From: Mobula birostris
Lineage: Eukaryota
Direction: 5' to 3'
Assembly (NCBI RefSeq): GCF_030028105.1
Contig: NC_092380.1
Coordinates: 27,305,144 to 27,369,143, forward strand
Length of the DNA stretch: 64,000 nt
Shown: positions 14,005 through 64,000 of the stretch, piece after piece
How positions within the stretch are numbered: the stretch's first letter is position 1
Layout: every line of letters begins with the position of its first letter
Notes under the pieces: model-generated
The model's input: only the letters and a program-made list of their open reading frames with translations
The model's database searches: none
Told to the model about the DNA's origin: nothing
Translations under genes and position numbers: made by a program

Positions 14005-14530
14005 TGTTAAGGATCTGGCCTGAATACTGGGTCGAAGGGCCTCTGCTGGTAGCTCTGCATCACGACAGTCTTTAATTTCTGTTTTCTTTCACCTGGTCAT
14101 GTGGGTTCTGGCCCAGTCCCTTTCCTTTTTGGACTTCCTCCAATTACCTGCTTGTCTCCTCATTTTGCACACACCTGTTTCTAATTTTCACTCATTACCC
14201 TGTCTATTTAAACCCTGCCTTGACTAGCATTCTCTGCCAGTTCGTCCCAGTTCTGACCTGTGTCATTCTAGCCCATCATTGTGACTTCTGCCAACCGATT
14301 TTGCCTGATTCTGTGTTTTGGACTTTGCCTGTTCTTGGACCTGATTTTTGCCTGTACGCTCTGGATTGTCTGCCCTCGCCTGACTGCCTTTCCTGGTTAA
14401 GGCCTCGGCCTGTCACTTCCAATTCGTGCCTGCCTTCTGTTTTTGAAAGATTGTTGCCTTTGTGCTCCCTAATAAATCCTGGTGAGAAAGTATTCATTGG
14501 TCTGCACTTGAGTCCCACCAAAACCTGACA
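14005..14530 (+). repeat. 5' LTR (526 bp)
   Basis: TGTTAAG...CCTGACA. TATA-like TATTTAAA at 14205-14212, AATAAA at 14471-14476. About 40 substitutions and 2 indels versus the 3' LTR by manual count (about 92% identity). Confidence 0.95.
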
Positions 14531-14542
14531 GAACGAACTGGC
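14531..14542 (+). promoter_or_regulatory. Self-priming primer binding site
   Basis: ACGAACTGGC (14533-14542) is the exact reverse complement of LTR 14236-14245 GCCAGTTCGT. The site does not begin with TGG as a tRNA-type PBS would. Confidence 0.8.
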
Positions 14543-14546
14543 CAAG

Positions 14547-15515
14547 ATGGACTCAGCAGACCCCAACCAGATGGGTGAGGCCCTCTCCCGACAGGGCGTG
14601 TTGTTAGGGAGACATGAAACGCAGTTCGCCGCTATCAACCAGTCGATGGAAGCCTTCTCTGCCACTCTGACCAGCATACCCTCCCAGCTACAGCAGATTC
14701 AGCTGGCGCTGAGCTCTGACCCGCCTTCTCTTGCTGTGCCAACAGCCCCACAGACTCCAACCCAACCAGCCCGAGAGCCCCGTTTACCTCCACCTGAACT
14801 GTACAATGGTGAACCAGGCACCTGCAGACCCTTCCTGTCTCAATGCTCGCTGATTTTCAAGCTGCAGCCCACTACCGTTCCCACTGATCGATCCCGTATT
14901 GCTTATGTTATCATGCTGCTGTCAGGAAGAGCAAGAGAGTGGGGTACAGCCGTGTGGGACAGCAGAGCTCCTTTTTGCCATGAGGAGATGAGAAGAGTCT
15001 TTGACCGTTCGCAGCAGGGGCGAGAGGCAGCAAGGGAGGTGTTGCGAGTTCGTCAGGGTAACTGTTCTGTTTCGGACTACGCCATTCAGTTCCGCACACT
15101 AGCCGCCACTACCAACTGGAATTCGGCGGCCCAATCTGACGCGTTCCTCTATGGGCTTAGCGAAGAGGTTAAGGATGAACTAGCCACCTGCGACCTGCCT
15201 GCTGGCTTCCAAGAGCTGGTCGATTTGGCCATTAAGATTGACAGCCGCATAAAACAGCGTCAGCAGGAGCGTGATTTGCGGGGGTCACGAAGAACCACCA
15301 GGGGGCGTCTGACCTCTTCCCAGCCAGCACCCAGATCTCCTTCCCCGAGTCCTCAGTCACCCCCATCCAGCCCAACAGATCTCATGTAGATTGATCGTAC
15401 CCATCTGTTTCCTTCGGAAAGAAGGGGGAGAGTCAGTACCAACTCCTGTCTGTATTGTGGTCAGGCCAGTCACTATGTATCTACCTGTCCTGTAAAAGCC
15501 AACGCTCGCTCGTAA
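14547..15515 (+). pseudogene. Gag (Sushi/PEG10-like capsid plus CCHC zinc knuckle) with an internal TAG at 15387
   Basis: PRLPPPELYNGEPGTCRPFLSQC...LLSGRAREW...QGNCSVSDYAIQF. The same frame continues past the stop to CLYCGQASHYVSTC and ends at TAA 15513-15515. Confidence 0.9.
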
Positions 15516-18500: not shown

Positions 18501-18810
18501 TACCCCCACCTTTCGCAGAATCCATCCTACATTCCATGTTTCAAGGATTAAGCCCTTTGTCTGCAGCCCCCTCTGTCTCACCCCCAAGCCCCCTCCCCAT
18601 CTCATGGATGGCTCAGAGACCTTCACTGTGCGCCAATTACTGGACGTTCAACGCGGAGGTCGTGGACTGCAATACCTCGTTGATTGGGAGGGCCATGGCC
18701 CCGAAGAGAGGTGTTGGGTTGCCGTTCGAGATACCCTGGATCCCTCTCTCATTAAGGACTTTCATAGGAGCCATCCCGTACCAGCAAGTAGGGCGTCTGG
18801 AGACGCCCGT
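15490..18810 (+). pseudogene. Pol: protease, RT, RNase H, integrase, chromodomain (frameshifted)
   Basis: FINSGAEGNFI (catalytic D replaced by N), [66 protein letters not shown] module, chromodomain FTVRQLLD...[16 protein letters not shown] (18604-18843). Confidence 0.92.
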
Positions 18811-18824
18811 GGGGGGAGGGGTAC

Positions 18825-19348
18825 TGTTAAGGATCCGGCCTGAATACTGGGTCAAAGGGCCTCTGCTCATAGCTCTGCATCACAACAGTCTTTAATTTCT
18901 GTTTTCTTTCACGAGGCCATGTAGGTTCTGGCCCAGCCCCTTTCCTTTTTGGACTTCCTCCAATTACCTGCTTGTCTCCTCATTTGCACCAACCTGTTTC
19001 TAATTTTCACTTATTACCCTGTCCATTTAAACCCCACCTTGACTAGCACTCTCTGCCAGTTCATCCCAGTTCTGACCTGTGTGGTTCCAGCCTGTCATTG
19101 CGAATTCTGCCAACCGATTTTGCCTGATTCTGTGTTTTGGATTTTGCCCGTTCTTGGACCTGATTTTTGCCTGTGTGCTCTAGATTGTCTGCCCTCGCCT
19201 GAATGCCTTTCCTGGTTAAGACCTCTGCCTGCCATTTCGGATTCATGTCTGCCTTCTGTTTTTGAAAGATTGTGCCTTTGTGCTCCCTAATAAATCCTGG
19301 TGAAAAAGTATTCATTGGTCTGCACTTGAGTCCCACCAAAACCTGACA
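18825..19348 (+). repeat. 3' LTR (524 bp)
   Basis: Direct repeat of 14005-14530, preceded by PPT GGGGGGAGGGG plus TAC. Confidence 0.95.
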
Positions 19349-26639: not shown

Positions 26640-27690
26640 GTCAGAGCCCATGGTATTAAAGGGAAGATTCTAGCAAGGATAGAAGATGGCAGACTGCCAG
26701 GGGGCAAAGAGTAGGAATAAAGGGGGTCTTTTTTAGTTGGCTGCCGGTGACTAGTGGTGCTCTGCAGGGGGTCGGTGTTGGGACCGTTTCTTTTCATGTT
26801 ATATATCAACGATTTGCATGACAGAATTGATGGCTTTGTGGTCAAGTTTGCACCAGATACAAAGATAGGTGGGGGGGCAGGTAGTGTTGAGTAAACAGAA
26901 GGACAGATTAGGAGAACGGACAAAGAGTGGTAGATGAAATATAGTGTTGGGAAGTGTATGGTCCTGCACTTTTGTAGAAGGAATAAAGGCCTGTTTTCTC
27001 AATGGGGAGAAAATTCAAAAATCAGAGGTGCAGAGGAGCTTGGTCCTCATGCAGGATTCCCTAACTTGTCAGTTGAGCAGGTGGGAAGGAAGGCAAATGC
27101 AATGTTAACGTTCATTTCAAGGGACGAGAATATTAAAACAAGGATGTAACGCTGAGGCTTTATAAGGTCTTTGTCAGATCGCTCTTGGAGTATTGAGAGC
27201 GGATTTGGGTCCCATGTCTAAGGAAAGGGTCCAGAGAGGTTCATGAGAATTATTCCGGGAATGAAAGGGTTAACGTGGGATAAGCATTTGACGGTTCCGG
27301 GCCTGTACTCACAGGAATTTAGAAGCATGAGGGGAGGATCTTCTTGAAGCCTATTGAATATTGAAAGGCCTAGACAGCGTGGATGTGGAGAGGATGTTTC
27401 ATATAGTGGGGGAGTCTAGAACCAGAGGGCACAGGCTCAGAATAGATACAGGTCCATTTAGAATGGAGAAGAGGAAGAGTTTTTTTCAGCCACAGATGGC
27501 TGTGGAGGCCAAGTCATTGGGTCTATTTAAAGCAGAGGCTGATCAGTTCTTGATTCATAAGGGCAGCAAAGGTTACAGGGAGGAGACAGGAGAATGGTGT
27601 TGAGAGGGATGATAAATCACCCATGATGGAATGGTGGAGCAGACTTGATGGGCTGAATGGCCCTAATGTTGCTCCTATGTCTTATGGTAC
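26640..27690 (+). mobile_element. CR1 LINE 3' half (degenerate)
   Basis: AHGIKGKILARIED, YSVGKCMVLHF, KGLDSVDVERMF...TRGHRLRI, typical CR1 3' UTR. Confidence 0.8.
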
Positions 27691-27796
27691 ATGTGCCTTC
27701 CCAACCTGTGAAGAAGTGGTGGAGAGAGTGACCATGTATGACATTGGTATGGGGGCAGCTCACTACTGACCTGCTGTGCTTTTGCTTTGTTTTCAG

Positions 27797-27877
27797 CTGG
27801 CTGAAGACTTTCAGTGGAAGCAGCACCTCGAGAATGACTGCCTCAGAATCAAGAAGATGATAGAAAAGGAACAAATG
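27797..27877 (+). CDS. Unknown TM/coiled-coil gene, coding exon 3
   Basis: TTTGCTTTGTTTTCAG acceptor, ATG|GTATGG donor, 81 nt, phase 0-0. LAEDFQWKQHLENDCLRIKKMIEKEQM. Confidence 0.8.
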
Positions 27878-27882
27878 GTATG

Positions 27883-28573
27883 GGTGACTGGGGCTGCTGA
27901 GGGAAGAATGTTTGGATGAATGGGGCTGCTGAGGGAGTGATGTTTGGATGAATGGGGCTGCTGAGGGAGTGATGTTTGGATGACTGGGGCTGCTGAGGGA
28001 GGAATGTTTGGATGAATGGGGCTGCTGAGGGAGGAATGTTTGGATGAATGGGGCTGCTGAGGAAGGAATGTATGGATGAATGGGGCTGCTGAGGGAGTGA
28101 TGTTTGGATGAATGGGGCTGCTGAGGGAGGAATGTTTGGATGAATGGGGCTGCTGAGGGAGGGATGTGTGGATGAATGGGGCTGCTGAGGGAGGGATGTT
28201 TGGATGAATGGGGCTGCTGTGGGAGGAATGTTTGGATGACTTAGGCTGCTGAGGGAGGGATGTTTGGATGACTGGGGCTGCTGAGGGAGGAATGTTTGGA
28301 TGAATGGGGCTGCCGAGGGAAGAATGTTTGGATGACTGGGGCTGCTGAGGGATAGATGTTTGGAGGACTGGAGCTGCTGAGGGAGGAATGTTTGGATGAA
28401 TGGGGCTGCTGAGGGAAGAATGTTTGGATGAATGGGGCTGCTGAGGGAGGGATGTTTGGATGACTGGGGCTGCTGAGGGAGTGATGTTTGGATGAATGGA
28501 GCTGCTGAGGGATAGATGTTTGGAGGACTGGGGCTGCTGAGGGATAGATGTTTGGAGGACTGGGGCTGCTGAG
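27883..28573 (+). repeat. 32-bp G-rich minisatellite, about 21.5 copies
   Basis: Unit approximately GGGGCTGCTGAGGGAGGAATGTTTGGATGAAT, period 32 (27891, 27923, ...). Confidence 0.95.
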
Positions 28574-29811
28574 TGAGGGATATGCTCCACTCCCAACCAC
28601 AGCTGTATGTGACTTAACACACGTTACTGGGCCAATACAGCTGTTCCCTTCTGTGGCTTGCCAGTAGTAGTGTGGTTGATTATCTGCAATGTTTTAATTT
28701 AAATCTGAATACCAGATCTGGAATTGTGTCGGAGAATAAAGGCTGAACTGTGAGTGGGATTGGAACGGAACTGGGTGGAGTGGGGACTGAAGGGATGGTA
28801 GGTGGATGTTCAAAAGTTCAAAGGTTCATTATTAAAGTATGTATGCAGGAGACAACTCAGATTCTTCTTCTCCAGATAGCCACAAAGCAAGACAAACATG
28901 GAAGTCAGTTCAGAGAGAAACAGCAAGCCCACCCTCCTGCACAATAAAAGAACAGCAATATGATCATCGACCTCCTCCCCCACACAAAACGCAACAAGAA
29001 TGGCAGCCCCCAAGCCCCCCCGAAACCACCCCCAACATGAAATGTAACAAGAACATTGGCCTCCTAATACCCCTTTCCTCGCACAAAAACTAACAGAAAC
29101 GCAATGAGAACATCGATCCCCAGACCACACCCCCCACACACAGAACACCACAAGATCATTGACCCCCCCCCCCCACCAAACCCACTCCCCTGCACAAAAG
29201 AACAATGAGAAAGGACGGGAAAAAATCACAGAATATAAAAACCATTAAAAAATCCATAGCCCAAATCCATACATACAGAAACCTCAGTAACATCCTCCAA
29301 GATTACTGAAAGAGAGAGACGCAGCGATAGGCCACAAAGGCTCCATCTCCAGCAGCACAGAGATCCCACCAGCAATCAGAAGGCAGGCAGCTGGCTCCGC
29401 ATTCACCCCGACGTTTCAATCTTCCTCGTCACTTTAACTGGCGAACAATTGGAGCTTTAATATGGAGTCAAACATCGGCGCATGCATAGAAGACAGACAA
29501 AGTAGAGGTGGTATTTTCACTGGAACCTTTGGAGTTTGAGAGGTATATGTATACATGCCAAGTATCATCTCATAATTTCTTCACCTCGAGGCTCACACTC
29601 ACTGCTTTTTGAAATCTTCCCACAGATAGCAAAGTGGTGAATCACTCAATTGTAAATCTCCAAACTGTTAATTGCAGGCTCTAACAGATCCAGAAACACA
29701 TTCAAGATGAAAAGCAGACGTAAACGAAATGAAATAAATAGTTTCGTAGTCTATCCAGAAGATGGCTACTGAGGGAGCATTGTACGCAGGTTCACACCTG
29801 CAGGGGGAGCG

Positions 29812-46534: not shown

Positions 46535-48035
46535 CCTCAATGACTATCACCCAGTAGCATTTACATCCACAGTGATGAAGTGTTCTGAGAGCTTGGTGAT
46601 GAAACTCCTGCCCGAGAAGTCACTTAGATCCCTTTCAATTTGCCTACCACAGCACAACTCTTTACTCAACTCTAGTACATCTGGTCAGCAAAGATGAATA
46701 TATCAGGATGCTCTTTACTGACTACAGCTCAGAATTCAATAACCTCATCCCCTCAAGACTAATCAATAAGCTCCAAGACCTTGGCCTCAATACCTGCTTG
46801 TTCAATTGGATCCTGGATTTCCTCACTTGCAGACCCCGGTCGGTTTGGATTGACAACAACGTCCCTTCCACGAACCCCATCAGCACAGGTGCAGCACAAG
46901 GCTGTGTGCCTAGCCCCCTGCTCTACTTGCTTTATGGTTATGACTGTGTGGCTAAGCACAGCTCCAATGCCATATTCCAGTCCGCTGATGACTCCACAGT
47001 TTAGGCCGATTCAAAAGTGGTGATACATTGACATATAGGAGGGAGATTGAAAATCTGGCTGAGTGGTGTCATAGCAACAGTGTCTTACTCAATGTCAGCA
47101 AGACCAAGGAGCCGATGATATAATTCAGGAGAAGGAAACCGGAAGTCCATAAGCCGGTCCTCATTGAAGGATCAGAGGTGGAGAGAATTAGCAACTTTAA
47201 ATTCTTGGGTGTTATTATTTCAGAGGACCTGTCCTGGGCGCGTAAGTGCAATTCAAAGAAAGCACGATAACGGCTCTACTTCCTTTGGAGGTTACCGACC
47301 TTCGGCATGACATCTATAGATGTGTATTGGTGAATATATTGATTGGCTGGTATGGAAAGAAAAAACCTACAAAAAGTAGTGGATACGGCACAGTCCATCA
47401 CGGACAAAGCCACCGCAACCATTGAGCACACCTAGATGAAACGCTGTTACAGGAAAGCAGCATCCATCATCAGGGACCCCCACCACCCAGGACATGCTCT
47501 CTTCTCGATGGTACAAGAACCTCAGGACTCACACCGCCAGGTTCAGGAACAGTTACTACCCCTCAACCATCAGGCTCTTTAAGCAAAGTGGATAATGTAG
47601 GTTTTCACAAATAAAACGGCGTTGACGTTTTATCTTTAGGGAAATACGTAACAATTATTTAACGTCAAAAAACTAAACACAAAGCGCCTTAAAAGTCCTG
47701 TACGTAATTGCATCATCACGTCAGATCCCCCTCTTAAAGATGAACCCCAACTCGATGTCGGGGGTTGTGAATTACGTTATGCAATAACCTCATTGAAATA
47801 TTCCCTCAACCAAAGGACTCACTTTCAAGGACTCTTGATCATATTCTCGATACTTAATGCTTACTTATTTATTATTATTTCTTCGTTTTGTATTTTCATT
47901 CTGGTTGAACGTCCTAGTTTTGCGGTCTTTTATTGATTCTATTTTGGTTATTATTCAATGGATTTATTGAGTATTCCCCAAAAAAATCAATGTCGGGGTT
48001 GTATATGTACTTTGATAATTTACTTTGAACTTTGA
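46535..48035 (+). mobile_element. Degenerate LINE RT plus 3' UTR, interrupted by a solo LTR
   Basis: [35 protein letters not shown]. (ACTTTGA)n tail at about 48020-48034. Confidence 0.8.
47596..47783 (-). mobile_element. Short solo LTR (188 bp)
   Basis: TG...CA termini, 4-bp TSD ATAA (47592-47595, 47784-47787). The host LINE UTR resumes across it. Orientation is tentative. Confidence 0.7.
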
Positions 48036-48049
48036 AACCCTTCATCAGG

Positions 48050-48620
48050 ACGTCGCTAATAGAAGCCTGACGTAGTCTCTATGTATGATGTCACAAGTGG
48101 AGGCCCCGCCCCTTGGCTCTCGCGAGAGCTGAGCTGGGCTGTGCTGCCGATGGAGGTGATGGCTGTCGAGTACAATGGAGCGGAGCGCTGCTGAGCGGCC
48201 GAGGGCCGGAGCGCGGGGACTGAGCAGCGGGGAGCCGCGCCATGGACGCTGTAGCCGCGCCTGCTGACCTGCTGGCGTGCGGGGGCAGCGGGGAGTCGAG
48301 CCCCGGGAGGGGAGCGGACGGGCCGCCGCCGGGCCCCGATGCCGATCCTGACGCAGTGAGGCTGGTAGAGCCGAGCCCGAGCCTGCTGGAGCGCTGCGGC
48401 GTGTGCAAGGGCTGGCTGCGGGAGCGCCAACCCCGCCTGCTCCCCTGCCTGCACTCGGTGTGCAAGGGATGCCTGCATGGCGCGCTCAGTGCGGGCTCTA
48501 GCCCGCAGGCTGAAGGTAAGGCCTGGGCTGGAGAGAGGAGGGCAGGGACCCGGGGCGAGTGCGATGAGATCGGGGCAGTGGACGACATGATTTGGGGGAG
48601 GGGCGCGAATGTGCTGAAGG
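48050..48620 (+). promoter_or_regulatory. CpG-island promoter
   Basis: GC- and CpG-rich. CRE-like TGACGTAG at 48068, GC box GGCCCCGCCCC at 48102-48112, palindrome GCTCTCGCGAGAGC at 48116-48129 (TCTCGCGAGA motif). Confidence 0.85.
48242..48515 (+). CDS. TRIM28: TIF1-family (TRIM28/KAP1-like) RING protein, coding exon 1
   Basis: Kozak GCCATGG, low-complexity N-terminus, then LLERCGVCKGWLRERQPRLLPCLHSVCKGCL. Donor AAG|GTAAGG, phase 1. TIF1 family membership is strong. TRIM28 versus TRIM24/33 rests on recalled motifs (CGVC...PRLLPCLHS versus CAVC...PKLLPCLHSFC). No further exon found in the window. Confidence 0.75.
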
Positions 48621-51600
48621 AGAATGGTACATCTGACCGGACGAGGACTGGGTTGATGGAGTTTGTCTGAGTGGCCGTGAATTAGGAGAGTATCGCCGGA
48701 GAGTAGGGTGCGTAAGGGGACCAGGGGTTGTGATGTGGGCTTGTTGATAGGGAGAGACATGGGGGGGGGCTGCCGATCAGGAGGGAGGGCGATTGGGGGA
48801 TGAGGAAGAGAAGACTGGGGCGTGGGACGGCGTGCGAGTTTGAGGGATGCCGCAAATTGTGTGGGGAGGATAAGAGGGAATGCAGTGGATCTGTGAGGCA
48901 GTACTGACGGAGGATTGTTGGGAATAGGGTATGGGTGACTGGATTTTGCTGGTGGAAGTTCTTAGAATAATGTGCACGTTGGAATGAGTGGACCAGAGAA
49001 TAAATGGTCAGTCTGGTCCGATGGTGTGGCATTCGTACAAATGGTGGAGTAAAAAGGTTACTACAGTGAGGAGGTTCTGGAGCTGGAGAGCGGGAAGTTC
49101 AGCAAATTTCTGTAGTAGAAGAATGAAGGTGGGTGGTCTGCGATCGAGGCCAGTATCCCGTGTTACCTGCATTGGTGGAAGGGGGAATATGTGCCAGCGG
49201 CCTTGCTTCAATTTCGTGGAATACTGAAAGTTTGCATTGGGTGGATGACAAGTTGAGAAGGAAGAGTGATGATTAGAAAACGGAGTAAGTCTGAAGTTCA
49301 ATATCTGTGGAAAAAAGAGGGAATTTTTTTGGATAGGGGATCAAGGAGCAGCGTTCAGACTCGGAAGTAAGAATAAAGTTACTGCTTTGAAGCTACACTG
49401 GATGTTTTTTTTTGGTCACTGAATGAATTGTAGAGGGGCTTGTTTTGTCATGAACAGGAACACGATTACTTCCCAAATGTGTTGTCAGAGTTAGTTGCAA
49501 TAAAGTGCACAAGAATGATCTGATTCTGTTTCTAATTCAAGTGAGTTATTCAGTAACATCATTCAGTAACTGTCATTCAGTAACATCATCAGTACTTCGG
49601 CAAATTCAGAACTGACTTAATGGACCGAATGGCCTAACTCTGCACTTTTGTCTTGTGGTCTTACAGATTGCTGATTTGTTCTGAAAACTTGCTGTTCATT
49701 CTTGCTTGAGTTAATCCCATATGAAATAAGTAAGATATTTCCCAGTGGGATGCTGGATTTCTTTATTCATTTTTGGGGATCTGGGCATTTTGGCCAGGCC
49801 AGCAGTTACTGAGCACCCCTAACTGTTTGGGAGCAGGTGGGTGGTGAGCTGCTGCCCCTACATGCAGCAGTCCTTCTGGTGCCGCTATCATGTTGGGCCT
49901 TGAAATCCAAGACCTAGGCGATGTCAGGATTCTGTTCAACTTGTTGGATAGAGCAGTTGTTTTTTGCAATCCAAGTGTAAACTGCTAGGGGTGGAGTGCA
50001 TTAGTTTGTAAGGACTGGATGAATATGCATCATTAGACAGTTTTTGGAAAACTCAATCAGCTTTAATTGAACTACTTATTGGCCAAGTATCGAAAGAATG
50101 ATTTCTGTGCTTTAGTTCTCTTTCCTGTCCAAAAGTGCTTTCCAGCCTCACGCAGTACTTGTGAAATCTTGTCAATGTTGTTATGTTGTGTATCGTAGGC
50201 AGCCAATTTGTACAGATCAACCTCTCTCAAAGAACTATGTGATGTTGGGTGGATAATCTGAGTCACGGATAAGTGATGGTACTGATAGTGATCATACTGT
50301 CCGGCTTTTCAAAGTGGTGATGCACCCACCTGAGAGGGAAGACTGCCTTTCTCTGAAAGATGGCACTTAAGACAGCAATGCTTTTCCTCCCTTGTGTACA
50401 ATCTAAATGTCAGAGTAGGTCTTGACCATATTATTTTGCCTCCAAATGTTACCAGCCAGGCCACACTGAGAGCTTGTAGGATTGCAAAGTCTACTGAATT
50501 TACCAACGTCATCATTCAATTGAAAGCTACTCTTGCTCAGACGCATTCAGTGGATTGAATAGTAGGTGGTTGGGGGGGGGGAGGTGGGGAAGAACAAGCA
50601 TGCAGGAACAATGCAAGCTTCTGGCGTCTGGCATTAAAGGTACTAGGAGCTGCATTGTCCACAGTGGCTCTTGCACTACAAAAATGCAAGTAATTTTAGT
50701 AGTAATTTGTCATCATGCTTCAACTTTGAGGAAATTTCTTTGGATGCTAGCATTTTTCATTGTCCTCCTATCACATTTTCATGCTTCGTTGTACTCTGCT
50801 TGCATGAGTGATATTGATTGTACAGAGCATTCAGTAAATGAGTGATTGCCAACACCAGCTATTTCTGAGAGATCTGTGGATAGATGATCATTTTAAAGCA
50901 CATGAAGGTGCATTAGCACCAGTATAACTTGTGGAGAATTACAGAGAACTGAGGTAATTCTGTTCAGTGGAACATGCAAAGAGATGTGTGGATAAAAAAT
51001 ATCATGTTAAGGTACCTCTCTAAATAGAAGACAGTGTTCTTATCGCTTATCACAGCAGACTTCTCAGTGAAAACAGGCCCGATTACTGGCCAGCAGAGAA
51101 GTTAGGAACTACACAGAAAGCAGTATTCTATAGGATATTTACTGAGGATGGTGAAAGCAGTTTCAGTTTCTCAGAAAGTACATCTCAAAGCATTAAAGGT
51201 TGTTGGTTGAAGTAAGATTTCTTGTCTGTTTTAATGATTAATACAGCAAAACATCTGACCATTGCTCACTGTCTTGTACAATTCTTAAGTATTCTCATTA
51301 TAGCAGGTTAGACAAACTTGAGTTGTTTTCTCTGGAGTGGCAGAGGCTGCCGGGAGATAAATAAGATTATGAGAGGCATAGATAGAGTAGGCAGAGAGTA
51401 TATGTGAACTGTACACATTACTCCAAGTGTGATCTCACCAAAAACTTTTACAGATGTAGCATGATGTCCCAGCTGTCTTCTCAATAGCCTGACTGAATAC
51501 ACCCTATCTGTGTCTCCACTTTGAGGAAACTATTCACCTGAAGCCCTAGGTCTTTCCGTTCTACAACACTTTTCAGGGCCCTGCCATTTATTGTATAAGT

Positions 51601-53040
51601 CCTGCTGTGCTTAACTTACCAATTTCAATATCTTACTCATGTCTGAATTAAAATCCATCTGCTGTTCCTTAGCACTTCCCCAGTTGATCTAGCTCCTGTT
51701 GTAATCATAGATAACCCTCTTGACTATCTACTGTACCACCACTAATTGTGTACTTGCAAGCCTACTAATGATGTCAATTTATTCTCATCCAAATCATTAA
51801 TATTGGTGACAAGCAATAGTGGATCCCAATCCCTACGAGACACCACTGGTTACAGGTTTTCAATCTGATGAGCAACCCTTTACTACCACATTCTGACTCA
51901 TTTCATGTAGCCAATTTTTTATCCAGTTTGCTAGCTCATCCTGGATCCTTTGATCTAATCTTCTGAACTAATGCATAGAACCTTGTCAAAACTCTTGCTA
52001 AAGTCCATGTAGACAATGTCACTGCCCTGCCCTTGCATTCCTTTTTATTATCTCATCTGAAAACTGATTTGTCAGGAAGTCATGTTGACTAACCCGTATC
52101 AGTCCTTGTCCTTACAAGTGCTCGTGGATCCGGTTCCCTCAAACTTCCTCCAGTAATTTACCACTGATCCTAGGTTCACTGGCCTGGAGTTTCCCTGGTT
52201 GTTTTTCAACCCTTAAAGACAGTTATAGCATTAGCCATCTCCAGGTGACTCACCCTTGTGTATAGATTTTGCAAGTATTTCTACCATGGACCCTGCAATT
52301 TATTTCCTACTTTCTCACAGCATCCTAGGATGATCTTCTTGGGCAGGTCTCGGGGACCTCATTACTACCGTAAGGGAGGAGGTACAGGAGATTGAGGAAC
52401 AGCTCCTTCTCCTTTGCCATAAGATTTCTGAACTGTAAATGAACACTATTTATTAATCCTTTCTGAACTATTTTTATATTTTGTAATTTATAATTTTTCT
52501 CTTTGTACTTTTCTGCTGCCACAAACCAACAAATTTGACATGAATGGCAACACACAAAATGCTGAAGGAACTCAGCAGGTCAGGCAGCATCTATGGAAAG
52601 GAATAAACAGTCAACGTTTTGGGCCGAGATCCTTCATCGGCTTTGGAAAAACAAGATGAGAGGTCAGAGTATGAAGCACTTCCTCCAGTTTTTTGTGTTC
52701 CTCCAGCACTTTGATTTCCAGCATCTGCAGATTTGAAATTTCACATCATATAAGACTGTGATAATAAATCTGATGTTAAAGTATCCACCCTAATGCTTTA
52801 AGACTACCAGCATGTTTATTGTAATGTGGATGCGTTCCAATCACCACCATACATTTTCCTTAGCTTACATACCTCTGTTGTAAACACTGATGAGAAGTAC
52901 TCAGTTCGGACCTGATGGTGAGCTGCTACTCCATTTACAGGACACCTGGGGGTATTGGTTGATTTGTGCTGAGTGTTGCAGTGTTTATGTGTAATCTCAA
53001 AAGATTAAAGATTAGTTTTATTTATCACATGTACATCAAA

Positions 53041-54770
53041 ATAGTCATAGTCATACTTTATTAATCCCAGAGGAAATTGATTTTCGTTACAGTTGCTCCA
53101 TAAATAATAAATAGTAATAGAACCATAAATAGTTAAATAGTAATATGTAAAATATGCCAGTAAATTATGAAATAAGTCCAGGACCAGCCTATTGGCACAT
53201 GATGTCTGTCCCTCCAAGGGAGGAGTTGTAAAGTTTGATGGCCTCAGGCAGGAATGACTTCCTATGACGCTCAGTGCTGCATCTTGGTGGAATGAGTCTC
53301 TGGCTGAATGTACTACTGTGTCCACCCAGTACATTATGTAGTGGATGGGAGATATTGACCAAGATGGCATACAATTTGGACAGCATCCTCTTTTCAGACA
53401 CCACCGTGAGAGAGTCCAGTTCCATCCCCACAACATCACTGGCCTTACGAATGAGTTTGTTGATTCTGTTGGTGTCTGCCACCCTCAGCCTGCTGCCCCA
53501 GCACACAGCAGCAAGCATGATAGCACTGGCCACCACAGACTCGTAGAACATCCTCAGCATCGTCTGGCAGATGTTAAAGGACCTTGGTGTCCTCAGGAAA
53601 TAGAGACTGCTCTGATCCTTCTTGTAGACAGCCTCAGTGTTCTTTGACCAGTCCAGTTTATTGTCAATTCGTGTCCCCAGGTATTTGTAATCCTCCACCA
53701 TGTCCACACTGATCCCCTGGATGGAAACAGGGGTCACCGGTACCTTAGCTCTCCTCAGGTCTACCACCAGCTCCTTAGTCTTTTTCACATTAAGCTGCAG
53801 ATAATTCTGCTCACACCATGTGACAAAGTTTCCTACCGTAGCCCTGTACTCAGCCTCATCTCTCTTGCTGATGCATCCAACTATGGCAGAGTCATCCGAA
53901 AATTTCTGAAGATGACAAGACTCTGTGCAGTAGTTGAAGTCCGAGGTGTAAATGGTGAAGAGAAAGGGAGACAAGACAGTCCCCTGTGGAGCCCCAGTGC
54001 TGCTGATCACTCTGTCGGACACACAGTGTTGCAAGCATACGTACTGTGGTCTGCCAGTCAGGTAATCAGGAATCCATGACACCAGGGAAGCATCCACCTG
54101 CATCGCTGTCAGCTTCTCCCTCAGCAGAGCAGGGCGGATGGTGTTGAACGCACTGGAGAAGTCAAAAAAACATGACCCTCACAGTGCTCACTGGCTTGTG
54201 CAGGTGGGCGTAGACACAGTTCAGCAGGAAGATGATGGCATCCTCAACTCCTAGTCGGGGCTGGTAGGCGAACTGGAGAGGATCTAAGTGTGGCCTGACC
54301 ATAGGCCGGAGCAGCTCCAGAACAAGTCTGTCCAGGGTCTTCATGATGTGGGAGGTCAATGCCACCGGTCTGTAGTCATTGAGGCCGCTGGGGCACGATG
54401 TCTTCGGCACAGGGACGAGGCAGGACGTCTTCTACAATACAGGAACCCTCCGGAGCCTCAGGCTCATGTTGAATACATAGCGAAGTACTCCACATAGCTG
54501 AGGGGCACAGGCTTTGAGCACCCTGGTACTGACACCATCCGGTCCTGCAGCCTTGCTTGGGTTGAGACGTTTCAGCTGTCTTCTCACCTGTAGAGCTGTG
54601 AAGCCCACCGTGGTGGTTTTGTGTGGGGATGGTGTATAGTCATGAGAGCAGGGTGGGGGACTGTGAGGAGGGGAGAGTGGAATATTTGTTGGTTTGGGGC
54701 TGACAACAGATGGCTCATGTGTGGGATGGACAGGGGTCACACTGTGAAATCTGTTAAAGAACAGGTTAAG
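53041..54770 (-). mobile_element. Rex1/Babar-like LINE RT, same family as 3320-4724
   Basis: 304-aa ORF 53189..54103 with GAPQGTVLSPFLF and KFSDDS. KAAGPDG upstream. (TATGAC)n tail. Confidence 0.9.
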
Positions 54771-55604
54771 TTGTACAGTGATATGCCTCCATTGCATCAA
54801 GACTTAACACAGTACGAAGGAATATGTGCTGCCTAATATTGAAGTACTTAAATATACTTTTTTTCTGAATTAAGAAAATAAATCGGTGTTTAGTTAATGC
54901 TTTTAGTACAAATTTCTTAATTGCGAAAATAGCATTTAACTTAGTTTTGCTACTTCGGCAAATACTTTTTAAATAGATGCTTCTTGGCAGTATCTTGTTT
55001 AATAACAGCTGCAAGAAACAGTTCAGGTCAATTTAAAGTAACTAATTTGCAGTTAATGGTTTTGCTTTCTTAAAAGAAACTTATTTTTGGGTCCTTTTGA
55101 AGTTCTATTTCTACTATTTGCTTTCCTGTTAATGCCATTAAGTATTTGCAAGGTAAGCAAACAGACAATGTATAATAGTTCTTCATTTTAGTTAACTGAA
55201 CCGATTTTCAGATATTTCTGATCTGGAATCAGATATGTATTCTGGAACTGATTTCAAGTTCTGCAGAGTGCAAACACACAGGGTAAATGGTCTCCTGTGA
55301 TGCATGAAAGTGTGGCAGAAATGTTAAGGTTGGTAGACCTTGGTAGAAATAGAGGGAATGTTAAAATGAGCAGATGCATGACAATTAATTTCATACAAAG
55401 TCAAAATGAAAGTGAAGTTTGTTATATGCACAGGTGCAATGAAAAAATTACTTGGAGCAGCATTCATAAGAGAAAGCAGGCAAAAACAAGGTGACAATTT
55501 TTAGAAGAAAGATGGGGGAAATGAGAGAAATAAAAGGCCTAATCTGCGCTGTATCTCTAAATGCGTATATGTGTGCGGTACATGCATACAAATTGTACAA
55601 TGTT

Positions 55605-56680
55605 TAAAAAAGATTCAGAATGGTCATCTATGCATGGAGCCAAAAGAGATGGGGGAGATTTTAAATGGAGTTTTTGCATCTGTATTTACTTGGGAGATGG
55701 ACACAGAGTCTAGAGGAGTGAAGCAAAACAGCAGTGAAATCATAGACTATTTATAAATTATAGAGTAGGTGGTGTTTGCTGCCTTGAGGCAAATTAGGGT
55801 GGATAAACCTCCAGGGTTTGACAAGATGTTCCCTCGGACCTTGTTGGAGGCTAGTGCAGAAATTACAAGGGCCTTAGCCGACATATTTTTAAAAAATTCC
55901 TTAGCTGCAGGTGAGGTGCCGGATGATTGGAAGATAGTTAATGTTTCTTTGTTTAAGAAAGGTTCTGTGAGTAAGCTGGGAAATAGTAGGCTGATGAGCC
56001 TGACATCAGTAGTGGGAAGTTATTGGAAGGTATTCTAAAGGACTGGATGTACAGGGTTCGATTAGGAATAATCATTGTGGCTCAGTGATTGGTAGGCTGT
56101 GTGTAACTATTGTCGAGTTTTTTGAGGAAGTTCTAAGAAAAGTTGATGACAAGATAGTGGATGTTGTCTATGTGGAATATAGCAAGGTCCATCATGGAAG
56201 GTTGGTCGAGAACGTTCAGTCACTTGGCATTCAGGATGAGGTCGGAAATTGGAATATTCATTTTCTTCGTGGGAGAAGCCAATAGTAGGTGGTTGATTCT
56301 CCTGACTGGTGGCTTCTGATTAGTGATGTGCCACAGGGATCTGTTTTGGGTCCATTGCTTTTTGTCATCTATATCAACAACCTGGATGGTAACGGCGTAA
56401 ACTGGATAAGCAAATTTGTGGATTACACCAAGATTAGGGTGCAGTGGACCGTGAGGAAGGCTATCAAAGCTTACAGCAGTATCTGGGCCAGCTGGAAAAA
56501 TGGCAGATGGAATTTAAAGCAGACAAGTATGAGGTGTTGCAATTTCGGAGGACAAACTAGGGTAGATCTTACACAGTGAGCAATAGGGCACTGAAGATTG
56601 CGGTAGAAAGGAGGAGTCTAAGAATACAGATCCATAATTCCTTAAAAATGGCACCACAGGTAGATGGGGTCATCAAGAGA
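55605..56680 (+). mobile_element. Degenerate CR1 RT fragment
   Basis: GEVPDDWKIVNV, SLTSVVG, DVPQGSVLGPLLFVIYIN. Confidence 0.8.
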
Positions 56681-58034
56681 GAGCACTGCGCATTGTGTGA
56701 AGTTCAAAACACAATGTTTATTTTTTTTTAAAATTGCAATCTGTCACAGAACCCCAGTTGAGAAACCCTGCACTATACTGACTGGTATCCCATTGCCCTG
56801 ATATCTCTCTCTACTTGTTGGTGTCCCATTGTGCTGATATCTCACTGTACTACTGGATGTCAAATGGTCTTGGTATCTCTGTACTAGAGACTATCCTGTT
56901 GCCATGAAGTCTCGCTATAATGGAGAGTCCAATTTTCTTAAATCTCTCTCTATACTGGAGATTGTCCCTCTGCCTTTGTATTTTTGGTGGGGCAATATCT
57001 TTCTTTCCTGGTAGGTGTCCTGCTCTGTGTCTATACTGATGAGTATTCCACTGCCCTCTCCACTCTCCACAGTGCATCTCTACACTGGAGAGTCTCCCAT
57101 TACCCTTGTATATCTGTATACTGGAGAGTGTCCCATTATCATGATATCGCTCTGTATAGTTGGGTGTCCTGTTGCTCTATGCTGTGGAGTGTCCCATTGC
57201 CCTGATATCTCTCTATAATAGCATCCCATTATCCTGTTTTGATTTCTCTCTCTTTGGTTGGTGTCTCATTGCCCTTGTACTTCTATACATGTGGATGTCC
57301 CAATTTCCTGATCTCTCTTATAGTGGAGAATTTTCAATTACCCTAATATCCCCCTCTACTGGACAGTATCCCTGTATGGCCACAATAATGGAGTGTGGCC
57401 ATTGACATGATATCGTGCTAGACTGGAGAGTGTCGTGTTGCTCTGTTATCTCTTTGTACTGGAGAATGCATATTGCCACAATATCCTTCTTGACTGGAAA
57501 GTGCCCCATTGCCCTGATATCTGCCTATATAGGTGAGTATCCCATTGCGCTGATAGTTCTCTATTCTGGGGGTTGTCCCACAGCCCTGAAAGCTCTCTAT
57601 ACTGGTGGGTATTCTATTGCCATGATATATCTTTATACTGGAGGTTGTCCCACTGCCCTTGTATCTCTGGTGGAGCAATATCTCTCTATAATGGTGAGTG
57701 TCTCTTTGTATTGATATCTTGCTAGAATGGCACATGTTCAATTTCCCTGGTATCTCTTTATAGTGGAATGTGTCTTATTGCCATGATATGTCTCAATACT
57801 GGTGGAAAATTCACTGTCCCCTGATATTGTATTATACTAGAGAGCGTCCCACTGTCCTGATCTCTCTTTACAATGGAGTGTGTCCCATTGCTCTAATATC
57901 TTTATAATGAAAAGTGTACTTTGCCCTGATGTGTGTCTGTACTGGTGCATGTCCCATTGCCCTGCTATATCTCTGTACTGGTGTTGTCCCATTGCCCTGT
58001 TGTCTCTCTATACTGCAGATTGTCCCGCTGCCCT

Positions 58035-58604
58035 TGTAACCGTAAATTTGCTCGATCAAATAACAACAGTACAAAAAGATCGTTGTTTATCTTTTCACCC
58101 ATTTATTTCTTTGAGCTCAGCCGGCAGGTGAACTTGGACCTGACATCAGGGAAAGAAACGTTCTCATCTCCCCGGCGGTTCAACAGATTCACTGCCTGAT
58201 GTCAGAATTGTTAGAAGTTATACGGCCACCGATACATAAGAACAATCAGTTTGATAGACACTCCAGCCACCTTAATTAAAGAAAGGAATGTCCTACCTGG
58301 TTTGTTGGAGTCACAACTTAATTACAAAGATAAGAACATCCGTCAAATTTATGCTTTAATTAAGAGAGGAATGTTATGTCTAATTCCCATCAGGTACTGC
58401 CTTTTGTCAAAATCAAAAGGTATGAAAAGCCCAGAGACATCTTATGTGGATGTGGGTGAACTTTAACCCTTATCTTGCTCCAAAGAAACCAGCTGTGAGA
58501 CAGTATTCTAACACATTGCAGTCACCCACAAAATACACAGACATAGTCGGTTCTTAACCCATTGTAAACAATCTGAGAATCCCCCGTTCCCTTAAACTTT
58601 ATCA
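58035..58604 (-). mobile_element. Solo LTR (570 bp)
   Basis: TGTAAC...TTATCA termini, 4-bp TSD CCCT (58031-58034, 58605-58608). AATAAA on the minus strand near 58102. Confidence 0.78.
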
Positions 58605-58699
58605 CCCTTGCATTTCTGCTGGGGCAATATCTCTATACTGGTGGGTGTAACCTTTGCACTGACATCTCTCTGGAATAGAACACACCCCACTTCCCTCTT

Positions 58700-61470
58700 A
58701 GCTCTGTGGAATTATGATGTAGTGGCCATTACAGAGACTTGGCTGGCACCAGGGCAAGAATGGATTCTCAATGTTCCTGGATTTCAGTGCTTTAAAAGGG
58801 ATATAGAGGCGGTGGGGAAGGGGAGGAGGGTGGCATTACTGGTCAGGGATACTATTACAGCTACAGAAAGGGTGGGTAGTGTAGCAGGATCCTCTTTTGA
58901 GTCAGTATGGGTGGAAGTCAGGAACAGGAAGGGAGCAGTTACTCTATTGGGAATATTCTGTAGGCCCTCTGGTAGCAACAGAGATACCGAAGAGCAGATT
59001 AGCAGATTGGGAGGCAGTTTTTGGAAAGGTGCGAAAACAACAGGGTTGTTATCATGGGTGACTTTAACTTCCCTAATATTGATTGGCACCTGGTTAGTTC
59101 CAAGGGTTTGGATGGGTCAGAGTTTGTTAAGTGTGTCCAGGACGGATACCTGTCACAGTATGTTGACAGGCCGACTAGGGGGAATGCCATACTAGATGGA
59201 GTATTAGGTAATGAACTGGGTCAGGTCACAGATCTCTCAGTGGGTGAGCATCTGGGGGACCGTGACCACCACTCCCTGGCCTTCAGCATTATCATGGAAA
59301 AGGATAGAACCAGAGAGGACAGGAAAATTTTTAATTGGGGAAGGGCAAATTATGAGGCTATAAGGCTAGAACTTGCGGGTGTGAATTGGGATGTTTTTGC
59401 AGGGAAATGTACTATGGACATGTGTTCGATGTTTCGAGATCTCTTGCAGGATGTTAGGGATAAATTTGTCCCAGTGAGGAAGATAAAGAGTGGTAGGGTG
59501 AAGGAACCATGGGTGACAAGTGAGGTGGAAAATCTTGTCAGGTGGAAGAAGGCAGCATACATGAGGTTTAGGAAGCAAGGATCAGATATAGCAAGAAAGG
59601 AGCTTAAGAAGGGGCTGAGAAGAGCAAGAAGGGGACATGAAAAGGCCTTGGCGCGTATGGTAAAGGAAAACCCCAAGGCATTCTTCAATTATGTGAAGAT
59701 CAAAAGGATGACAGGAGCGAAGGTAGGACTGATTAGAGATAAAGGTGGGAAAATGTGGCTGGAGGCTGTGGAAGTGAGCGAGGTCCTCAATGAATACTTC
59801 TCTTCGGTATTCACCAATGAGAGGGAACTTGATGACGGTGAGGACAATCTGAGTGAGGTTGATGTTCTGGAGCATGTTGTTATTAAGGCAGAGGAGGTGT
59901 TGGAGTTAATAAAATACATTAGGATGGATAAGTCCCCGGAGCCTGACGGAATATTGTCCAGGCTGCTCCACGAGGTGAGGGAAGAGATTGCTGAGCCTCT
60001 GATTAGAATCTTTATGTCCTCGTTGTCTACGGGAATGGTACCAGAGGATTGGAGGGAGGCGAATGTTGTCCCCTTGTTCAAAAAAGGTAGTAGGGATAGT
60101 CCAGGTAATTATAGACCAGTGAGCCTTACATCTGTGGTGGGAAAGCTGTTGGAAAAGATTCTTTGAGATAGGATCTATGGGCATTTAGAGAATCATGGTC
60201 TGATCAGGGACAGTCAGCATGGCTTTGTGAAGGGCAGATCATGTCTGACAAGCCTGACAGAGTTCTTTGAGGAGCTGACCAGGCATATAGATAAGGGTAG
60301 TACAGTGGATGTGATCTATATGGATTTTAGTAAGGCATTTGACAAGGTTCCATGGTAGGCTTAATCAGAAATTCAGAAGGCATGGGATCCAGGGAAGTTT
60401 GGCCAGGTGGATTCAGAATTGGCTTGCTTGCAGAAAGCAGAGGGTCGTGGTGGAGGGAGTACATTCGGATTGGAGGATTGTGACTAGTGGTGTCCCACAA
60501 GGATCAGTTCTGGGACCTCTACTTTTCGTGATTTTTATGAACGACCTGGATGTGGGGGTAGGAGGGTGGGTTGGCAAGTTTGCAGACGACACAAAGGTTG
60601 GTGGTGTTGTAGATAGTGTAGAGGATTGTCGAAGATTGCAGAGAGACATTGATAGGTTGCAGAAGTGGGCTGAGAAGTGGCAGATAGATTTCAACCTGGA
60701 GAAGTGTGAGGTGGTACACTTTGGAAGGACAAACTCCAAGGCAGAGTACAAAGTAAATGGCAGGATACTTGGTAGTGTGGAGGAACAGAGGGATCTGGGG
60801 GTACATGTCCACAGATCCTTGAAAGTTGCCTCACAGGTAGATAGGGTAGTTAAGAAAGCTTTTAGGGTGTTAGCTTTCATAAGTCGAGGGATAGAGTTTA
60901 AGAGTCATGAGGTAATGATGCAGCTCTATAAAACTCTGGTTGGGCCACACTTGGAGTACTGTGTCCAGTTCTGGTCGCCTCACTATAGGAAGGATGTGGA
61001 AGCATTGGAAAGGGTACAGGGGACATTTACCAGGATGCTGCCTGGTTTAGAGAGTATGGATTATGATCAGAGATTAAGGGAACTAGGGCTTTACTCTTTG
61101 GAGAGAAGGAGGATGAGAGGAGACATGACAGTGGTGTACAAGATAATAAGAGGAATAGATAGAGTGGATAGCCAGCGCCTCTTCCCCAGGGCACCACTGC
61201 TCAATACAAGAGGACATGGCTTTAAGGTAAGGGGTGGGAAGTTCAAAGGGGATATTAGAGGAAGGTTTTTTACTCAGAGAGTGGTTGGCGTGTGGAATAC
61301 ACTGCCTGAGTCAGTGGTGGAGGCAGATACACTAGTGAAATTTAAGAAACTCCTAGACAGGTATATGGAGGAATTTAAGGTGGGGGGTTATGTGAGAGGC
61401 CGGGTTTGAGGTTCAGCACAACAGTGTGAACCAAAGAGCCTGTACTGTGCTGTACTATTATATGTTCTGT
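58700..61470 (+). mobile_element. CR1 LINE, near-complete ORF2 (AP endonuclease plus RT), frameshifted
   Basis: AITETWL, MGDFNFP, DHH, NYRPVSLTS, SGVPQGSVLGP, KFADDTK, TRGHGFK. ORFs 59021..60166 and 60339..61409. Confidence 0.93.
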
Positions 61471-61761
61471 GTAGTGAATCGTGTCCTATGCCATAACATC
61501 TCACTGTAATGCCCAGATATCCCTCTATGCTGGACAGTGCCTCATTGCCTTGATCCCTCTCTAATGTAAAGTGCCTACTGCCCTGATATCTTCTATTCTG
61601 GTTGCTGTTCCATTGCCTAGATATCTGTTCATAATACATTGTCCCTCTGTCCTGCCCTAGATCTTGAGGGGGGATTTGATAGAAGTATACAAACTTGTGA
61701 GGAATATAGATGCAGTGAATGCAAGCAGGCTTTTTCTACTGATGTTGGGTGAGACTAGAAC

Positions 61762-63540
61762 GGTGACAGGACAATTGCATCCTGGACAACTGTCCCGGTC
61801 AAATGTGTCCCAGTCATTGGCGTCCCTGGACATTTGCGTCCTTTTTTTATGTCCCAATATATATATGTCTCATATTAGATTTGTCTCCCAATATATGTAT
61901 ATTTCATAAAAGATATAATTTTACATATGTAATTTTTAAATCAAAAACAGTTTTATTAATTAAAAAAGGGATTGTGACATGCATTCTATTGATTAAAAAA
62001 TTTAATTTATAAGTCCAAACTTAAAAAGTATGCATGTCGTGGGCAACCCCTCGTAAGAAACTTAATTTGTCCTCAGGATTGTTACATGCAATTCATGATT
62101 GAAGGCGCTTATTGATATCCTTATTTCTTGGTTGGACAATTATCTCTCTTTGGTAGTCAGTTTTCTTCTTTGTGGCCATGACTTTCTCTTTCTTCAACGC
62201 ATCAGTTAATTTCCTAACAGAGGGGTGTTGACAAGTAATTGAATTTTCGATAGCATTATGCCACTCCTCTAAACTGTTGTTAGATCTAGGCAAGTCGTTC
62301 ATTGTTCAATCATGAACATGCCAAGATGCAATGGGAAAGGTTGCAGCAATCTTGTGCCCACTTCTACCTCTTGCTTGGCCAATGTATGTAACTTCAAAGT
62401 ATGCGAAGAATTTGGGAGGTAAGTCGTGATCTTCACTCAGATCCAAAAAGCCTGCTACAACATCATTTACTGGAAGGAAAGCTAATGCACAGAAATATCT
62501 AATTTTTAAATTGAATTCTTGATCTTCGTTATACTGTTGTCTTAAACCGAGGTTGCATATTTTCTTAAAGATGGATTGTTGACAAATGGAAAATACACGA
62601 GCTTATTGTTGCATTAGTATATGCTTCTGCTATACTCTTTCTTGCTCCTAGTTTAAAATCCGATTTGGGATTAAGTTGAGGGTGAGTCTGCGACTAAAGA
62701 GTGAATAGGCGGTCATATGCTTCTTTAGTCTTATTGGGTAGAAGAGCAAAAACACGGGGAATACTGAATGTATGGTCTTGGACATCGATACAGTACAATT
62801 GATAATAGATTTGTGGGCACATTTTAAAAGTGCCATTTGCTGCCCAATTCTGAAATTGTGTCAAGTCATCCAAACCATCTTCAGAAGCAAAGATGAGCAT
62901 TCTGTTTTCATCATCTATGCTAGTATCAATTGCAAGAAACCTTTGTCTAGTGGGGAGAATACAATATTCTTCTGGTATTTCGTAATTACGTCTTTGGTTT
63001 GGTATAGGTAGAGCATTTTGTGTTTTCTGTCTCCAACGACGAACATTTCTCCCCATTGCTGAGACAGAGGGCATTTCTGCCATTGAAAATTCATCATGTT
63101 TTGACAAAGTTGTTCCAATGAGATGTCTTGTTGGTTCTTGTGAGGATATCGCTGTTTCTTTCAACTCTAAAATTGATTCTTTTACTCTAATTGCAGCAGC
63201 AGGAGAAGCATGGTTATGCTCATTAATTCATTTTGTTATTACATTGCTCTCGGTATGAACTGCTACTTTGCAAGATCGTACCACACATCTCCAGTAAGTT
63301 TTCGTGCCCACAGCATTTTTCTTATGATAGTGATAGATATAATTTTGGTCATCAGCAAGTATGTTTCCACCTTTGCTTGATTTCAAGCACTGTGACATAT
63401 ATAACACGGGGTTTGTTACCCTGTAATAGTACATATAGTGGGACGCAAATGACCAGGATGCATGAAAAAAAAAGGACGCAAATGTCCATGGATGCTAATG
63501 ACCGGGACACAATCGTCCAGGACACATATACCCTAGTACC
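61762..63540 (-). mobile_element. Mutator/MULE DNA transposon (Phantom-like), 1779 bp, inserted in a CR1 3' fragment
   Basis: 9-bp TSD GACTAGAAC/AACTAGAAC (61753-61761, 63541-63549). GGT...ACC ends. Imperfect terminal and subterminal inverted repeats. Confidence 0.88.
62021..63398 (-). pseudogene. FLYWCH plus MULE transposase pseudogene
   Basis: SSKGGNIL...NYIY...TYWRC...C...HNH (FLYWCH), RMLIFAS...WAANGTFKMCPQIYYQLY...FALLPNKT, ALAFLP, RSNNSLEEWH, FLRGVAH. Several stops and frameshifts, catalytic D replaced by N. Confidence 0.88.
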
Positions 63541-64000
63541 AACTAGAACATTATGGGCTAAGAGTTAGAGGAGAAATGTTTAATGGGAACATGAGGGGGA
63601 ATTCTTCACTCAGAAGATGATGAGATTGTGAAACGAGCTGCCTCTGGAAGTGGTGGATGTGGGTTCAATTTCAACATTTAAGAGAAGTTTGGATGGGAGG
63701 GATATGGAGGGCTATGGTCCGTGTGCAGGTCAATGGACCTAGGCAGATCAATAGTTCGTTGTTGACTAGATGGGCTGAAGGGCCTGTTTTTGTGCTGTAG
63801 TGTTCTATGACTAGGGTATAACAGAGATAGGAGGCTTTGATGTATGTACGGTTGTAAGAAAAAGTTTGTGATACCTTGGCAATTACCTGGTTTTCAGAAT
63901 TAGTTACACAGAATGTGGTTTGATCTTCATCTAAGTCACAATGCACAAACACAATCTGCCTGAACTAATAACGCACATACAGTTATACTCTTCATGCCTT

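Follow-up and report, generated by a model that had tools for sequence, protein, structure and literature searches.

Mobula birostris, a cartilaginous fish, carries a true orthologue of TRIM28 (KAP1, TIF1-beta), an assignment that we regard as practically certain; trees of both domain regions, AU tests, synteny and the presence of separate paralogues in the same genome all agree on it, and the proposal of such an orthologue in the initial annotation is thereby borne out. The first coding exon of the gene lies in the window, by which we mean the whole stretch of DNA that was analysed (64,000 nucleotides). Ray TRIM28 is probably a dimeric silencing scaffold of the HP1/SUMO type, with a recruiter that is likely something other than a canonical KRAB zinc-finger protein (KRAB-ZFP). 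The protein provides a test case, since its KRAB-binding patch is intact although searches of the genome found no KRAB-ZFP, and it poses the question of what KAP1 bound before KRAB.

The RING exon was confirmed at 48242..48515 of the plus strand; the frame opens with an ATG at position 48242, runs through a leader rich in Ala, Gly and Pro and includes the RING half that had been quoted, and this coding part (residues 1-92, ending in phase 1) is supported by the reading frame, by the protein match and by a contig join to exon 2. It encodes the six N-terminal zinc ligands of a C3HC4 RING, namely C52, C55, C69, H71, C74 and C77 (48395..48472, plus strand), as judged from the frame and from PDB and Pfam matches; the RING half was recognised by the Pfam profile zf-RING_UBOX (E = 1.7e-5), and the best PDB match of the exon was human TIF1-beta (E = 3.7e-9). 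When the exon was used in a protein search, 8 matches were obtained among 655 candidates, all of them TIF1-beta-like proteins from rays or a shark, three showing 100% identity across it. Positions 48072..48241 (plus strand) are likely to be 5' untranslated sequence of exon 1, as contigs extend back as far as 48072-48152, although contigs cannot prove the true start. Positions 48001..49000 form a CpG-rich promoter/first-exon island (GC 0.62, CpG observed/expected 0.81), the top CpG bin among the 64 one-kb bins of the window.

The donor GT (48516-17) directly follows the end of exon 1 at 48515 and opens an intron of approximately 63.9 kb, which separates exon 1 from exon 2; the donor and the first 15.5 kb of this intron, with LINE-type and other repeats, occupy the remainder of the window (48516..64000, plus strand). 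The last CxxC of the RING had been predicted to fall on a later exon, and C96 and C99 are indeed encoded on exon 2 at G000:C13:27417510, beyond the window. In four of four public runs, from four studies, a contig exits the window at the donor and runs into exon 2; the RNA nature of these runs is a guess of the tool, and the join itself has the spliced form. Recovery of the downstream exons, as had been suggested, yielded a 19-exon gene at G000:C13:27353385-27471626 encoding 1142 residues, with exons 2-19 (G000:C13:27417510-27471626) beyond the window. The NCBI record for this species (P0001, named TIF1-beta-like) is encoded letter for letter by the 19 exons over 1142 of 1142 residues; 15 residues of the M. 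hypostoma record (P0002) were left uncovered when compared with the same genome.

Dispersed, 5'-truncated copies of exon 1 were observed at C4:137.35 Mb (L002), C1:145.9 Mb (L003) and C1:244.86 Mb (L007), matching window positions 48139-48517 at 95% identity over 379, 170 and 92 bases. All three run on into one common sequence of approximately 700 bases, which differs from exon 2 and for which no counterpart was found in the window. They probably originated by retrocopying of an alternative or chimeric transcript; C28:61.6 Mb holds a fourth candidate copy. By eye, no other conserved gene was recognised in the window among frames of at least 110 residues. A tandem repeat with an 81-base-like period (window 27620-28693), whose minus strand gives long frames rich in Pro, Ser and Gln, is probably non-coding, and window 14500-18900 appears by eye to hold the remnant of a Gypsy-like LTR retrotransposon, in which fragmented gag-, RT- and integrase-like frames can be made out.

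The encoded protein consists of a RING, two B-boxes, a coiled coil, a PHD finger and a bromodomain, the domain composition of the TIF1 family (class VI TRIM proteins). Its RBCC region matched human TRIM28 in the PDB with an E-value of 4e-128. At the C-terminus, Pfam matched a PHD finger (E = 2e-4) as well as a Bromodomain (E = 0.008), both below the curated cut-off, and the PHD-bromodomain matched PDB structures with E-values of 1e-33 to 1e-40. By plain score for this half, human TRIM28 (119 bits) came behind TRIM33 (142), TRIM66 (132) and TRIM24 (123), and for this reason the RBCC and PHD-bromodomain halves were treed separately. In alignments, the start of the PHD finger and the bromodomain pocket are degenerate, diverging from TRIM24/33/66 at the same places as tetrapod TRIM28, positions presumed to bear on histone binding. 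The HP1 box proposed as a check is present as PYVRL (residues 799-803), followed by the motif found in all TRIM28 rows, and the box is common to TRIM66. At residues 797-798 of P0001, just ahead of this box, both Mobula records have Asp where the other chondrichthyan and the lobe-finned TRIM28 rows have Val. The linker of the ray protein is rich in glutamine (18% versus 4-8% in lobe-finned TRIM28), and together with the length of 1142 residues this suggests that TRIM24/33-like roles may persist. Neither the ray protein nor the buffalo row has a C-terminal SQ site within its last 60 residues, so this feature does not discriminate.

The RING motif, which had been offered as a marker of TRIM28, did not serve as one: the TRIM28 of Heptranchias reads CAVC, and P0126, a protein of the TRIM24 clade, reads CGVC...PRLLPCLHSVC, so that the motif alone was ruled out as diagnostic. 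P0126 is a 'frog TRIM24' by the analyst's label, its cluster holding only a hypothetical frog protein.

Phylogenetic placement was clear in both halves. In the RBCC tree (35 rows) the TRIM28 clade was recovered with support of 100/99 and its inner order followed the species tree, the cartilaginous fish (100/97) branching first, followed by lobe-finned (99/97) and ray-finned (99/96) groups, with TRIM66 as the sister clade of TRIM28 (97/96). The PHD-bromodomain tree (34 rows) likewise recovered TRIM28 at 100/99; it was weakly resolved within the clade, where one long hagfish branch fell. These rows were hand-picked from approximately 300 proteins, an earlier tree of 86 rows having been built by a quick method only, and the tree labels u_T24, u_T33, u_T66 and inv1-5 denote unnamed representatives assigned by motif and position. 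AU tests rejected the grouping of the chondrichthyan rows with TRIM24/33 (RBCC, p = 6e-6; PHD-bromodomain, p = 0.015) and with TRIM66 (p = 0.001). Among the RBCC homologues listed, 119 of 120 were named TIF1-beta or TRIM28 or had uninformative names, the exception being a hake TIF1-alpha.

Coiled-coil exons identified three further TIF1 genes in the Mobula genome: TRIM33 (C4), TRIM24 (C11) and TRIM66 (C13:76 Mb). TRIM28 (C13:27.35 Mb) and TRIM66 (C13:76.2-76.4 Mb), which are sister clades, thus share one contig, and ray TRIM66 retains its RING exon. The synteny predicted for the locus held in part. UBE2M lies 42 kb downstream of TRIM28 (PDB E = 3e-22) and CHMP2A approximately 90 kb downstream (E = 3e-22), both on the same strand, and we take both to be neighbours of human TRIM28; ZBTB45, the third neighbour named, was not seen, as none of 142 BTB matches fell near C13:27 Mb (150 of 196 candidates scored). 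That the gene is instead TRIM24, TRIM33, TRIM66 or a paralogue confined to chondrichthyans is suggested by the higher PHD-bromodomain scores against TRIM33/66/24 structures, by the length and by the Gln-rich linker; set against the trees, the AU tests, the synteny and the three paralogues found at loci of their own in this genome, this alternative has a negligible probability. Membership of TRIM24 or TRIM33 was rejected specifically, the protein having neither their clade position nor their coiled-coil signature.

The same trees bear on the ray-finned fish, in which TRIM28 has been stated to be absent (PMC11603059, PMC10380595, PMC10547256) while the initial annotation had described the KRAB-ZFP/TRIM28 system as lacking in teleosts. 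An absence of TRIM28 from these fish was not supported and looks wrong. The bichirs Erpetoichthys and Polypterus carry proteins named TIF1-beta-like, and a divergent, fast-evolving clade comprising bowfin, gar, arowana, eel, bonefish, trout, cavefish and a cyprinid nests within TRIM28 in both trees, joining the bichirs with support of 99/96 (RBCC) and 95/80 (PHD-bromodomain). A position of the fast clade beside TRIM66 was rejected (p = 0.007), as was one beside TRIM24/33 (p = 0.006), although the stem of the clade is long (1.16), so that attraction may contribute. The names of its members vary among TIF1-beta, TRIM33-like and TRIM66-like; the ray-finned TRIM28 candidates are P0132, P0267, P0163, P0181, P0168, P0154, P0224, P0225, P0212 and P0262. 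From these placements it is very probable that ray-finned fish never lost TRIM28, that its KRAB patch decayed, and that zebrafish-type fish carry a fast-evolving TRIM28 that has gone unrecognised. Among the mostly open-access main texts surveyed, no paper was found on TRIM28 being kept in ray-finned fish. Such an orthologue bears on papers proposing TRIM33 as a stand-in for TRIM28 (PMC11603059, PMC10547256) and, if real, would be a candidate cofactor for the zinc-finger repressors of fish.

In human TRIM28, KRAB is contacted by Q292, V293, K296, M297, L300, residue 304 and R311 (Stoll et al. 2022, PMC9753469); residue 304 is printed as Arg304 in that article and is Lys in the PDB chain when this is numbered so that the remaining six residues agree. 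The KRAB-binding residues of the coiled coil had been singled out for inspection, and six of the seven in the ray are as in mammals (Q, V, K, M, L, K, K, the difference being R311K), with all seven letters identical to those of turtle, caecilian and Callorhinchus. Coelacanth and lungfish each match at 5 of the 7 positions, bichir at 2 and the teleost rows at 0-1; among the paralogues, TRIM24/33 rows match at 0-1 and TRIM66 rows at 2, K296/M297 being found in TRIM66 also. By hand count, 24 of 28 residues over the patch are identical between ray and caecilian versus 58% over the RBCC, a difference which favours constraint without separating binding from packing. RBCC identity is 78% between Mobula and Callorhinchus and 78-89% among chondrichthyans. 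Among the mostly open-access main texts surveyed, no paper was found on the chondrichthyan KRAB patch.

A search of the genome with a KRAB profile, which the initial annotation had recommended, agreed with its expectation that canonical KRAB-ZFPs would be missing, as only PRDM9-type matches were found. The Pfam KRAB profile gave 9 matches among 58 scored candidates, all in one PRDM9-type tandem array on C9; with the ray's own aKRAB as the query, 10 matches were obtained on C9, the same 9 plus one decayed copy, in or near the array. The decayed extra aKRAB exon lies at C9:132.12 Mb. The array itself (G000:C9:132416000-132839000; L008-L033, L114-L144) is made up of 10 tandem PRDM9-like units approximately 45 kb apart, in which aKRAB and PR/SET exons are joined by zinc-finger exons; two of the units appear complete, with 17 and 8 fingers, and the others are damaged by stops, frameshifts or missing exons. 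PR/SET exons follow 7 of the 9 KRAB exons, the other two standing alone. The database matches to ray aKRAB numbered 16, of which 14 had PR/SET and 2 had no Pfam entry. No gene joining a SET-less KRAB to C2H2 fingers was found in the genome by these searches, whose counts are lower bounds, as a very divergent KRAB could escape them. A DUF3669 search of the genome gave one weak match (E = 0.43) among 14 candidates.

The C2H2 complement is very large (15,393 first-look candidates, many on C17). On C17, very many near-identical multi-finger ORFs were observed, and at C12:50.41-50.49 Mb a cluster of 12-19-finger ORFs with a common short Pro/Thr-rich leader; no KRAB was seen in either. Across 49 zinc-finger loci or stretches, none of 9,091 frames matched the aKRAB profile, the best score being 8.7 bits versus 101 for the control, in what is a small sample without distant 5' exons. 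The in-frame leaders of the zinc-finger arrays examined were short or of low complexity.

By analogy with human TRIM28, a corepressor role for the ray protein is quite probable. It would dimerise through its coiled coil, the HP1 box would bring HP1 to chromatin, and SUMO-dependent SETDB1/NuRD silencing would be recruited there as it is by human KAP1, presumably against transposons. The recruiter would be something other than canonical KRAB-ZFPs: with the KRAB-contact residues kept and no KRAB-ZFPs found, another docking partner is likely. The central patch of the coiled coil may be the docking site for an adaptor, a site that KRAB domains would later have taken over in lobe-finned fish. The step inferred most weakly is a living non-KRAB ligand on the patch, to which we give slightly less than an even chance. 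We put forward tentatively the wider history in which the KRAB-docking surface was complete in the jawed-vertebrate ancestor before KRAB-ZFPs arose, is held by a pre-KRAB adaptor in sharks and rays, was taken over by KRAB in lobe-finned fish, and decayed in a TRIM28 that ray-finned fish kept.

Conservation of the patch need not mean a ligand, given its position at the centre of the dimer and the slow evolution of cartilaginous fish. Dimer structure and slow evolution could account for it entirely, with recruitment by way of TRIM24/33 heteromers, promoters or the C-terminal half, and this is a real possibility, if one we would not presume. The patch does lie on the dimer dyad and KAP1 remains on promoters without KRAB binding (PMC9753469), the chondrichthyan background identity is high, and SET-less KRAB was not found in the genome searches; a purely structural constraint sits less easily with the other residues that occupy the patch in TRIM24/33/66 and ray-finned TRIM28 (0-3 of 7 retained), or with the excess of ray/caecilian identity over the patch relative to the RBCC.

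Two further readings are special cases of an adaptor on the patch. In one, which is doubtful, zinc-finger genes of the ray would encode the recruiter as a concealed KRAB-like domain that has diverged beyond the reach of current profiles; the size of the C2H2 complement and the existence of FiNZ and KRAB-like domains in fish (PMC10547256, PMC11603059) are in its favour, whereas the failure of the aKRAB profile in the small sample of zinc-finger loci and the short or low-complexity leaders of the arrays are not. In the other, the ligand of the patch would be the ancestral KRAB encoded by the PRDM9-like array that has expanded on C9, a forerunner of the KRAB-ZFP system. That array holds the sole KRAB matches in the genome, as nine tandem exons accompanied by zinc-finger exons with as many as 17 fingers, and coelacanth KAP1 binds PRDM9-like coelacanth KRABs; it failed, however, to bind the KRAB of coelacanth or human PRDM9 (Helleboid et al. 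2019, PMC6745500). The PRDM9 KRAB requires several changes to bind TRIM28, and modern KRABs need MLE (Lorenz et al. 2022, PMC8835667); at this place the ray domains retain KR, as in PRDM9. On the strength of these two studies PRDM9 is an unlikely ligand and, with PR/SET exons behind most of the KRAB exons, we consider this reading quite improbable.

A TRIM28 has been reported from Callorhinchus milii, the elephant shark, and dated to the gnathostome ancestor, with loss inferred in ray-finned fish (Carducci et al. 2021, PMC8292531), so a cartilaginous-fish TRIM28 is not new; its existence is in print, and the finding as first stated is ordinary. The gene and its dating being already known, what is added here is an intact KRAB patch where no KRAB-ZFPs were found and the probable retention of TRIM28 in ray-finned fish. 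The account of Carducci et al. concerns presence only; in its accessible text the KRAB patch, HP1 box and partners are not discussed. The Callorhinchus protein (P0010; TIF1-beta at NCBI, where the ray proteins are TIF1-beta-like) is the same gene, with an RBCC 78% identical to that of the ray and the same seven patch residues, as are the NCBI TIF1-beta-like models of Mobula, Hypanus, Hemitrygon, Pristis, Narcine and Heptranchias, P0001 being the ray protein itself. TRIM66, TRIM24 and TRIM33 share the domain order, and TRIM66 also the HP1 box and K296/M297, but they occupy separate loci here, their patch is incomplete and their PHD-bromodomain motifs are canonical. Coelacanth KAP1 (PMC6745500, PMC8835667) is alike in being an early TRIM28 beside PRDM9-like KRAB domains; more than 200 SET-less aKRAB-ZNF genes bind KAP1 in the coelacanth, whereas in the ray all KRAB matches belong to the PRDM9-type array, and the ray patch, with K296 kept, is closer to the human than the coelacanth patch is. 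Human TRIM28/KAP1/TIF1-beta (PDB 6h3a, 7z36; PMC9753469) has in common with the ray protein the RBCC, six of seven KRAB contacts, the HP1 box and following motif, and the degenerate PHD-bromodomain; the ray protein differs in being approximately 300 residues longer, in its Gln-rich linker, in R311K, in the segment after the coiled coil and in a basic C-terminal tail, and it is encoded in a genome in which no canonical KRAB-ZFP was found.
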